NCBI RefSeq assembly: GCF_013167455.1
Contig: NZ_CP038328.1
DNA: 64,000 nt
Source of the DNA: Escherichia coli O157:H7
GTDB taxonomy: Bacteria > Pseudomonadota > Gammaproteobacteria > Enterobacterales > Enterobacteriaceae
Direction: 5' to 3' (one strand)
Shown: one piece after another, positions 41,527 to 56,419 of the stretch
How positions within the stretch are numbered: the stretch's first letter is position 1
Layout: the number at the start of each line of letters is the position of its first letter
Position numbers and translations under genes: made by a program
Notes under the pieces: generated by a model
Seen by the model: only the letters and a program-made list of their open reading frames with translations
Database searches by the model: none
Told to the model about the DNA's origin: nothing

Positions 41527-43139
<1,613 letters not shown>

Positions 43140-47549: not shown

Positions 47550-47859
47550 TATTCCTTGTTATACACATTACGAAAAATAAGACATTTAAGATCATCAAAA
47601 GAGGAAAGTAAATGTATTGCGTATAAAGGGATGGATTAAATTTATTAAAATTCACGCCGGGAATAATTTATAAAAATACATCATTACAACATATATATTA
47701 ATTTTATATTTATTTCGCAGCCAAACAGGATAAACATCAGTCGGGACAAAGACGTATAATTTAAGATGAAAGAATATCTGCCGCTTTGATAATTCCAAAG
47801 AGCAAAAGCATCCGACAGCGAAGCGCCGTTATGTTCTGTGAAAGTGGAGAAGGTAACCG

Positions 47860-48051
47860 CTAACGTTGTACCGGTGATTCGACGGAGAGTGTGGATTGCT
47901 GAGCTTCTTTTTTGCTCTGATGGTGCTGCCAGGCACCGACGGACGAGTAGATAAAACGGCCAAAGAAGAAGATAAAGCTGATGAGCAGTACGATACGGGT
48001 CATGCGACTGTTAAATCGGTGTCGTTTTCGCATACTGGTTGCCTGACTCAC
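47860..48051 (-). CDS. yfgG: Small membrane protein YfgG
   Basis: 63 aa ORF with one hydrophobic helix (IVLLISFIFFFGRFIY). Confidence 0.7.
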   Translation of the reverse strand: MSQATSMRKRHRFNSRMTRIVLLISFIFFFGRFIYSSVGAWQHHQSKKEAQQSTLSVESPVQR

Positions 48052-48261
48052 AAAAGGTTCCTTGAAGTATGTCCCACGCCGTGGACGGTACTTACATTAA
48101 GGCACAACAGGACAAAATGGTCAATTCTTCGTTATGTAAAAAATCGTCAGTGGATACATATTTTAATGTTATGGAAGTTAATTTAATTATTTACAATGAT
48201 GATGTAATAATGATGAATTAACATGATAAACGTAATAATTCATTAATCAGGGTTATTTTGT

Positions 48262-48275
48262 TTGATATATATCAA
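48262..48275 (+). promoter_or_regulatory. Consensus FNR box upstream of pdeF
   Basis: TTGATatatATCAA is an exact match to TTGAT-N4-ATCAA, in the AT-rich divergent region between yfgG and pdeF. Confidence 0.65.
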
Positions 48276-48402
48276 TTGGAACTTTCATATGACACTTAGA
48301 ATCAATGCTCTCTATAGTGATGAATAATCATCATTCGAAGTCAGGTGGGATGCCTGTCTGAATACACCTCCTTCAGGATGTGGGGGATTCTGCTGAGCAT
48401 CT

Positions 48403-50646
48403 ATGAAACTGAATGCAACTTATATAAAAATACGTGATAAATGGTGGGGGCTTCCGCTGTTCCTGCCTTCTTTAATCTTGCCCATTTTCGCCCACATTAA
48501 TACTTTCGCGCATATTTCTTCCGGTGAGGTTTTTCTCTTTTATCTGCCTCTGGCACTGATGATCAGCATGATGATGTTTTTCAGCTGGGCGGCATTGCCA
48601 GGGATCGCCTTAGGGATTTTTGTCCGCAAATATGCAGAGCTGGGTTTTTACGAAACGCTCTCATTAACGGCTAATTTTATTATCATTATCATTCTCTGTT
48701 GGGGCGGTTACAGGGTCTTTACTCCCCGGCGTAACAACGTTTCACATGGTGATACCCGTTTAATTTCCCAGCGTATATTCTGGCAGATTGTGTTTCCTGC
48801 AACGCTGTTTCTGATACTTTTCCAGTTTGCTGCATTTGTAGGATTACTGGCGAGCAGAGAAAATCTGGTTGGCGTCATGCCTTTTAATCTCGGGACCTTA
48901 ATCAATTATCAGGCCTTACTGGTGGGCAATCTGATTGGTGTCCCGCTGTGCTACTTCATCATTCGGGTAGTGCGAAATCCGTTTTATTTACGTAGTTATT
49001 ATTCGCAATTAAAACAGCAGGTTGATGTCAAAGTCACCAAAAAAGAGTTCGCACTCTGGCTGCTGGCATTAGGTGCTTTACTGTTGCTGTTATGCATGCC
49101 GTTAAATGAAAAAAGCACAATTTTTAGCACCAATTATACCTTGTCATTATTGCTGCCCCTGATGATGTGGGGAGCGATGCGCTATGGTTATAAGCTGATT
49201 TCGCTGCTCTGGGCGGTCGTGTTGATGATCAGCATCCACAGCTATCAAAATTACATTCCCATTTATCCTGGCTATACCACGCAGCTGACCATAACCTCCT
49301 CCAGTTATCTGGTATTCTCTTTTATTGTCAATTATATGGCTGTACTGGCAACCCGTCAGAGAACGGTAGTCAGACGCATTCAGCGCCTTGCGTATGTGGA
49401 CCCGGTGGTTCATCTGCCAAATGTTCGCGCCCTGAATCGCGCGTTGCGTGATGCCCCCTGGTCTGCGCTTTGTTATTTACGCATCCCTGGCATGGAAATG
49501 CTGGTTAAAAACTATGGCATCATGCTGCGGATTCAATACAAGCAAAAACTTTCTCACTGGCTGTCACCCTTGCTGGAACCAGGTGAAGATGTTTATCAGC
49601 TTTCGGGTAACGATCTCGCGCTGCGACTGAATACAGAATCGCACCAGGAGCGCATTACCGCACTGGATAGCCATCTCAAGCAATTTCGTTTCTTTTGGGA
49701 TGGCATGCCGATGCAACCGCAGATTGGCGTCAGTTACTGCTATGTGCGCTCGCCAGTGAATCATATCTACCTGCTGCTGGGAGAGCTAAATACGGTCGCC
49801 GAACTTTCCATCGTGACCAACGCCCCGGAAAATATGCAGCGTCGCGGGGCAATGTATTTGCAACGCGAATTGAAAGATAAAGTCGCGATGATGAATCGAC
49901 TACAGCAGGCGCTGGAACACAACCATTTTTTCCTGATGGCCCAGCCGATTACCGGTATGCGTGGTGATGTTTACCATGAAATTCTTCTGCGCATGAAAGG
50001 TGAGAATGATGAACTAATCGGCCCCGATAGCTTCTTGCCGGTCGCGCACGAATTTGGTTTATCGTCGAGTATCGACATGTGGGTCATTGAGCATACGCTG
50101 CAATTTATGGCTGAAAACAGAGCGAAGATGCCCGCTCACCGTTTTGCTATTAATCTGTCTCCAACCTCGGTATGTCAGGCTCGTTTTCCTGTTGAAGTCA
50201 GTCAGTTGCTGGATAAATATCAGATTGAAGCGTGGCAACTTATTTTTGAAGTCACCGAAAGTAATGCTCTGACCAATGTTAAGCAGGCGCAAATCACCTT
50301 GCAGCATCTTCAGGAATTAGGCTGCCAGATTGCGATTGATGATTTCGGCACCGGCTACGCCAGCTATGCGCGGCTTAAAAATGTGAATGCCGATCTGCTT
50401 AAAATTGACGGCAGTTTTATCCGCAATATTGTGTCAAATAGTCTGGATTATCAGATAGTGGCATCGATTTGCCACCTGGCGCGAATGAAGAAAATGCGGG
50501 TAGTGGCAGAGTACGTTGAAAACGAAGAGATCCGCGAGGCGGTGCTCTCTTTGGGGATCGATTATATGCAGGGTTATCTTATTGGTAAGCCGCAACCGTT
50601 AATTGATACGCTGAATGAAATCGAACCCATTCGCGAAAGTGCCTGA
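48403..50646 (+). CDS. pdeF: Membrane-bound c-di-GMP phosphodiesterase (MASE1, degenerate GGDEF, EAL)
   Basis: 747 aa ORF; multi-pass N-terminal half; EAL-domain signature in C-terminal half. Confidence 0.9.
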   Translation: MKLNATYIKIRDKWWGLPLFLPSLILPIFAHINTFAHISSGEVFLFYLPLALMISMMMFFSWAALPGIALGIFVRKYAELGFYETLSLTANFIIIIILCWGGYRVFTPRRNNVSHGDTRLISQRIFWQIVFPATLFLILFQFAAFVGLLASRENLVGVMPFNLGTLINYQALLVGNLIGVPLCYFIIRVVRNPFYLRSYYSQLKQQVDVKVTKKEFALWLLALGALLLLLCMPLNEKSTIFSTNYTLSLLLPLMMWGAMRYGYKLISLLWAVVLMISIHSYQNYIPIYPGYTTQLTITSSSYLVFSFIVNYMAVLATRQRTVVRRIQRLAYVDPVVHLPNVRALNRALRDAPWSALCYLRIPGMEMLVKNYGIMLRIQYKQKLSHWLSPLLEPGEDVYQLSGNDLALRLNTESHQERITALDSHLKQFRFFWDGMPMQPQIGVSYCYVRSPVNHIYLLLGELNTVAELSIVTNAPENMQRRGAMYLQRELKDKVAMMNRLQQALEHNHFFLMAQPITGMRGDVYHEILLRMKGENDELIGPDSFLPVAHEFGLSSSIDMWVIEHTLQFMAENRAKMPAHRFAINLSPTSVCQARFPVEVSQLLDKYQIEAWQLIFEVTESNALTNVKQAQITLQHLQELGCQIAIDDFGTGYASYARLKNVNADLLKIDGSFIRNIVSNSLDYQIVASICHLARMKKMRVVAEYVENEEIREAVLSLGIDYMQGYLIGKPQPLIDTLNEIEPIRESA

Positions 50647-56223: not shown

Positions 56224-56419
56224 ACTGCTTTACACAACCTTTTTGCACGTCTTTTCCCCAGGCGCGCGGCGAAAGAAGACTTGTGCCAGGGCAAAGGTTA
56301 GTTTTCGGATGGAATAATCTTCTTTCATAACCATTTGAATATAAAATAACTTTATCTCAAACCGTTATCATTTTGACTAAAGTCAACGAAAATAATATTG
56401 CCGCCTTGAAGAAAGGAGG

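Follow-up and report, generated by a model that had tools for sequence, protein, structure and literature searches.

The closest described counterpart of the locus analysed here is the promoter of yfgF, also named pdeF, in Escherichia coli K-12. A passage of PMC3718329, from the Green laboratory, quoting Lacey, Partridge and Green (2010, Microbiology 156:2873) assigns this FNR-dependent promoter to class II, places its FNR box at -41.5, names TAGAAT as its -10 hexamer, and says that FNR activates yfgF, whose expression peaks under anaerobic conditions. Anaerobic activation of yfgF by FNR is also recorded in a RegulonDB-related curation paper. In the work of Lemmens et al. (2009), the divergent neighbour yfgG came out as an FNR target predicted with high confidence, and ChIP-qPCR showed in vivo binding of FNR at the yfgG/yfgF region (PMC2690998). 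Myers et al. (2013) reported an FNR ChIP-seq/ChIP-chip peak at yfgF/yfgG (PMC3688515 Tables S5, S6, S7 and S9), with yfgF as its estimated target, citing Lacey 2010. The predicted site under this peak is the exact 14-mer TTGATATATATCAA, with a PWM score of 16.08 (PMC3688515 Table S6).

The window, a stretch of 64,000 nucleotides of E. coli O157:H7 DNA, contains this 14-mer upstream of pdeF. Because the locus is the same as the published K-12 yfgF class II FNR promoter, the finding is already known: the FNR box is published and confirmed by ChIP, and the oxygen sensor FNR switches on pdeF anaerobically. As experiments had already established the FNR-pdeF link in 2010, with genome-wide confirmation in 2009 and 2013, no new biology comes from the window. 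No literature naming pdeF together with FNR was found under that gene name. The box puts c-di-GMP turnover under the influence of oxygen sensing by FNR, and with it motility, the properties of the cell surface and tolerance of peroxide. The additions made here are modest, comprising the strict spacing of the promoter across Enterobacteriaceae, the improbability of yfgG as a direct target, and unexplained conserved blocks in the pdeF leader.

The FNR box and the pdeF promoter

Gene identities were taken from the RefSeq annotation of the identical O157:H7 record and from K-12 MG1655, in agreement with the open reading frames of the window. The pdeF gene (48403-50646, plus strand; b2503 in K-12) encodes a cyclic-di-GMP phosphodiesterase of 747 amino acids with MASE1, degenerate GGDEF and EAL domains, while its divergent neighbour yfgG (47860-48051, minus strand) encodes 63 amino acids. 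A 601-bp region is 100% identical to an O157:H7 chromosome, and in 5391 of 5426 complete E. coli genomes at least 80% of this query is found at a single place. Between K-12 MG1655 and the window the intergenic region is colinear, with three substitutions (48080, 48144 and 48280), none of which falls in the box or the -10 hexamer.

The box occupies positions 48262-48275 (no strand), reads TTGATATATATCAA and is an exact TTGAT-N4-ATCAA palindrome centred at 48268.5, as an earlier, sequence-only reading of this DNA had claimed; it is the single exact match on both strands of the window. Its centre lies 134.5 bp upstream of the pdeF ATG at 48403, in accordance with the distance of about 135 bp given by that reading. 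The AT-rich divergent region shared with yfgG, which the same reading had pointed out, was recovered as a tract of 22% G+C (48125-48274), and the box sits at its edge within the yfgG-pdeF intergenic region.

The frequency of such a palindrome by chance was estimated by counting exact TTGAT-N4-ATCAA matches in 100 dinucleotide-preserving shuffles of the window. The shuffled windows held a mean of 0.09 exact matches, and 9 of the 100 held at least one. When up to two mismatches were allowed, the window gave 46 matches versus 32 expected, so that only the perfect box stands out. These 9 shuffled windows, together with the AT-richness of the local DNA, favour the view that the palindrome arose by chance in AT-rich intergenic sequence, or else is a site for another member of the CRP family, such as CRP itself. 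Half-sites of CRP read TGTGA, unlike the TTGAT of this box, and the box is conserved between genera, which differ from the consensus at positions 5 and 10 alone. Published FNR ChIP occupancy (PMC2690998, PMC3688515) stands against chance and CRP as well, leaving this explanation extremely improbable. The strongest evidence that the box lies beyond chance is its conservation, rather than the shuffle statistic.

Orthologous loci were collected by a genome scan with the PdeF protein, which returned Escherichia species, Enterobacter, Phytobacter, Kluyvera and one further enterobacterium, and by a metagenome scan anchored on a motif of the pdeF leader, which added further loci. The resulting 56 distinct upstream regions of 220 nt represent Escherichia, Enterobacter, Phytobacter, Kluyvera, and Salmonella-like and other metagenomic Enterobacteriaceae, that is, at least five genera plus metagenomes. 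The box is present with at most one mismatch in 56/56 of these regions, and in all 56 a TAnAAT hexamer is found at exactly 21 bp from it, with a spacer whose sequence diverges. Among the genome loci with upstream sequence, all 14 carry the box with zero or one mismatch at 124-144 bp before the start codon, followed by TAGAAT or TAAAAT beginning exactly 21 bp past it, and all 14 keep the divergent arrangement of yfgG and pdeF; the intergenic length, about 340-355 bp, is kept across five genera. The 13 box variants depart from consensus solely by a T-to-C change at position 5 or an A-to-G change at position 10. In eight representatives, mean column conservation reached 0.95 in the half-sites and 0.96 in the -10 hexamer, and 0.57 in the remaining columns. 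The variant TTGACTTAAATCAA, combined with TACAAT, agrees with the report for Salmonella (Enteritidis) in PMC3718329. A footprint of this kind is what a class II promoter should leave, since the helical phasing of activator and polymerase is fixed there; the strictness of the spacing between box and -10 hexamer across Enterobacteriaceae is a modest addition of the present check.

The -10 hexamer TAGAAT of the pdeF promoter (48297-48302, plus strand) is the one named in PMC3718329; it is conserved and begins 21 bp after the box, a distance that fits the -41.5 position. Adding the 41.5 bp given in the cited passage of PMC3718329 to the box centre at 48268.5 places the transcription start at about 48310, 7 nt past TAGAAT, and implies a 5' leader of about 93 nt (48310-48402, plus strand). 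A pyrimidine stands at this implied +1, which counts against the assignment. The hexamers 16-18 bp upstream of TAGAAT (CAATTG, AATTGG and ATTGGA) match TTGACA at no more than two of six positions, and a consensus scan returned no -35/-10 pair that uses TAGAAT. Class II promoters, being activator-dependent, are expected to have such a poor -35. A sigma70-like pair, ATGACA-18-TATAGT (10 of 12 consensus positions; 48289-48318, plus strand), overlaps the FNR-dependent promoter region and was put forward as a constitutive yfgF promoter on the basis of genomic SELEX (PMC3946193). It was ruled out as the main pdeF promoter, being conserved only within Escherichia.

FNR occupancy in vivo has been documented twice, in PMC2690998 and in PMC3688515. 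Mapped onto the window, the ChIP-seq summits of PMC3688515 lie within about 6-52 bp of the box; counted from its start coordinate, the summits of the ChIP-seq and ChIP-chip peaks are 12-58 bp away. The conversion of K-12 coordinates was checked with two other sites of Myers et al., at guaB/xseA and upp/purM. The guaB/xseA site (43110-43123) reads GTGAGCGAGATCAA, the reverse complement of TTGATCTCGCTCAC, and the upp/purM site (56373-56386) reads TTGACTAAAGTCAA; both depart from the consensus at two positions. Both are ChIP-seq sites bound by FNR without an FNR-dependent change in expression (PMC3688515).

With high confidence, the palindrome is the site at which FNR binds to activate a class II promoter of pdeF (yfgF). 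The anaerobic, FNR-dependent expression of pdeF invoked by the sequence-only reading agrees with the class II promoter described in the cited passage of PMC3718329 and with FNR ChIP at the exact 14-mer (PMC3688515). That reading had also named a lack of FNR occupancy and start sites incompatible with class I or class II activation as observations that would speak against it. Published ChIP-qPCR, ChIP-seq and ChIP-chip show occupancy (PMC2690998, PMC3688515), and the geometry given in the passage of PMC3718329 is that of class II. In the mechanism proposed here, dimeric [4Fe-4S] FNR would bind TTGATATATATCAA when oxygen is absent, with its centre some 41.5 bp before the start site, and would fill the place of the -35 element, for which no match is present. 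FNR would then recruit RNA polymerase to TAGAAT (48297-48302), giving a transcript that begins at about 48310 and carries a leader of some 93 nt; in the presence of oxygen, the cluster of FNR would be lost and pdeF transcription would drop. Sequence, geometry and conservation are shown here, and FNR occupancy in vivo as well as the dependence on FNR and anaerobiosis are shown by published work; the exact +1 is inferred, as are the contacts between FNR and polymerase, which follow from the general class II mechanism.

The divergent neighbour yfgG

The yfgG gene has a promoter of its own on the minus strand (48089-48124), both published and conserved, with the -35 element TTGACC at 48124 to 48119, the -10 element CTTAAT at 48101 to 48096 and a start site near 48089. 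The pair TTGACC-17-CTTAAT was assigned to yfgG in PMC3946193, and the start site was reported at position 2627275 of U00096.2 (PMC4447067), which corresponds to about 48089 by offset from the site coordinate of Myers et al. and lies 7 nt past CTTAAT. Under anaerobic conditions, ChIP-seq of sigma70 gave a strong peak at 2627279, and the sigmaS ChIP peak at the yfgG promoter is also strong. The -35 and -10 elements (aaTTGACC-N17-gtgCCTTAATgt) are kept in 15/15 sequences from at least five named genera. A further conserved block, CTGACGnTTTTTTACAT, was observed just upstream of the yfgG -35 element, in the 48089-48150 region of the minus strand.

The same stretch of DNA carries an annotated reading frame (48069-48221, plus strand) that RefSeq/PGAP calls a "hypothetical protein" of 50 amino acids, WP_000017561.1. 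This is probably a spurious call; the frame contains a frameshift in Escherichia sp. E1V33, lacks its stop codon in E. whittamii, has no annotation in K-12 and runs antisense to the yfgG promoter and 5' UTR.

Relative to the reported yfgG start site, the centre of the FNR box lies at about -179.5. Class I sites are centred between -61.5 and about -92.5, so the box is outside the class I/class II range for yfgG.

The suggestion of the sequence-only reading that the site could also act on yfgG amounts to a shared, bidirectional FNR site that activates both genes. This suggestion draws on the co-expression analysis by DISTILLER, which grouped yfgG with FNR targets and was followed by a positive upstream ChIP-qPCR (PMC2690998), on the roughly 2.2-fold higher anaerobic level of yfgG in the wild type (ratio 0.453; PMC3688515 Table S12), and on the palindrome itself, which is perfect and has no intrinsic direction. 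Against it, the start site and conserved promoter of yfgG put the box at about -179.5, and ChIP-qPCR cannot resolve two promoters about 180 bp apart. Among FNR-dependent operons, yfgG does not occur in Tables S8 and S10 of PMC3688515; the yfgF/yfgG peak is classed there as showing "no FNR-dependent change", its estimated target being yfgF in Table S9, and neither yfgF nor yfgG is FNR-dependent in the transcriptomes of Myers et al. (PMC3688515 Table S9). A bidirectional site is accordingly very unlikely, and this part of the sequence-only reading is not supported: with a conserved promoter of its own and the box about 180 bp from its start site, yfgG is unlikely to be directly controlled by the box.

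Conditional output and the pdeF leader

Activation of pdeF by FNR through the class II promoter depends on growth conditions, as shown by cultures in glucose minimal medium, in which the FNR peak at yfgF/yfgG is accompanied by no FNR-dependent expression change and expression does not change in Δfnr (PMC3688515 Table S9). The average of the FNR ChIP-chip peak rises from 0.35 to 1.68 in Δhns ΔstpA (PMC3688515 Table S7), and yfgF is O2-dependent only in this background, with a +O2/-O2 ratio of 0.23, or 4.3-fold higher expression without O2 (PMC3688515 Table S11). Genomic SELEX flagged H-NS for the yfgG-yfgF spacer (PMC3946193). Taken together, the rise in ChIP signal, the O2-dependence in Δhns ΔstpA and the SELEX result indicate that the AT-rich tract between the two promoters (48125-48274, no strand), a likely target of H-NS/StpA, probably restricts FNR access or promoter activity. 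Binding of H-NS/StpA to this AT-rich DNA probably lowers FNR occupancy and masks the O2 response of pdeF in exponential glucose-minimal cultures. Expression of yfgF is reportedly highest in stationary phase and at 28 °C.

The same observations bear on the proposal that FNR works mainly as an anti-silencer, displacing or restructuring H-NS/StpA at the edge of the tract instead of making direct class II contacts with polymerase. The box adjoins the 22% G+C tract, FNR occupancy in Δhns ΔstpA, the only background with O2-dependence of yfgF, climbs from 0.35 to 1.68, about five-fold in log2 units, and H-NS is flagged for the spacer (PMC3946193). The 21-bp distance from box to -10 hexamer, kept in 56/56 regions, is nevertheless a requirement of class II activation that anti-silencing would not need, and Table S6 of PMC3688515 gives no nucleoid-protein ChIP signal at the site in the wild type. 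As the main role of FNR, anti-silencing is therefore unlikely; it complements class II activation and does not replace it.

The leader of the FNR-driven pdeF transcript holds invariant blocks that appear to be undescribed. The first (48342-48359, plus strand), CAGGTGGGATGCCTGTCT / CAGGTKGGATGCCTGYCT, was found in the alignments and by RNAalifold and would form a CAGG/CCTG hairpin with GGA in the loop. The second, GCATCT (48397-48402, plus strand), stands directly 5' of the ATG in the alignment and is complementary to GGATGC at 48348-48353. Both blocks are invariant in 39/39 distinct leader variants of Enterobacteriaceae. In the transcript, GGAUGC (48348-48353) can pair locally within the CAGG/CCUG hairpin or with GCAUCU beside the start codon, and for most taxa the fold predicted to have the lowest free energy includes the latter pairing. 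In the stretch that separates the two blocks, a stem with a CCC/GGG core and variable flanking pairs can place GGA in a loop in every variant, in a structure-guided tabulation that was picked for best pairing; examples are ACCCA/UGGGU, ACCCU/AGGGU, CCCAC/GUGGG, AUACCC/GGGUAU, and CCUACA/UGUGGG against CCUGCA/UGCGGG. In the window this possible second hairpin is CCUCC...GGGGG, again with GGA in the loop (48367-48386, plus strand).

Applied to the 39 leader variants, RNAalifold returned the first hairpin alone, without covariation. Counting of pairs on a MAFFT alignment gave marginal covariation for the two hairpins, with 69% of cells paired in the second and a score of 0.080 compared with 0.062, a value attained in 26 of 500 shuffles; with covariation this marginal, the leader structure is a tentative candidate. 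Folding of the leader showed no extra stability relative to shuffles (z = -0.36), folding of the second hairpin segment across taxa was not unusual (mean z of -0.64), and no Rfam family was found in 47700-48600 at E ≤ 1. The names yfgF, pdeF and b2503 are absent from those CsrA CLIP-seq supplements of PMC5694010 that were covered, and the titles and abstract openings of literature mentioning both partners name no link of yfgF with CsrA or with NsrR.

A second layer of control on the FNR-driven transcript is conceivable but doubtful; it would consist of a conserved leader element made up of the CAGGUKGGAUGCCUGYCU hairpin, the CCC/GGG hairpin, both with GGA loops, and GCAUCU. Such a leader may bind CsrA or sequester the start site, a testable idea and not a result. 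If true, this layer would help to explain FNR occupancy without pdeF output in exponential cultures.

Comparison with known class II promoters

The K-12 yfgF class II promoter (Lacey et al. 2010, as described in the passage of PMC3718329) is the same locus as that in the O157:H7-like window; box, -10 hexamer and spacing are identical, and there is no difference of substance between the two. The FNR promoter of yfiD, with the box TTGATTTAAATCAA and a PWM score of 17.25 (PMC3688515 Table S6), is a near-consensus class II example. It resembles the pdeF promoter in having a TTGAT-N4-ATCAA box in the place of the -35 element, a recognisable -10 hexamer and no -35 match. The two differ in output: yfiD is strongly O2-responsive in the wild type, with a ratio of 0.11 (PMC3688515 Table S12), whereas pdeF is bound by FNR yet silent in exponential glucose-minimal cultures, its response being unmasked in Δhns ΔstpA. 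Class II promoters dependent on CRP share with the pdeF promoter a dimeric activator near -41.5 that overlaps the -35 region, but they differ from it in their TGTGA half-sites and cAMP signal, in place of which pdeF has TTGAT half-sites and responds to oxygen.
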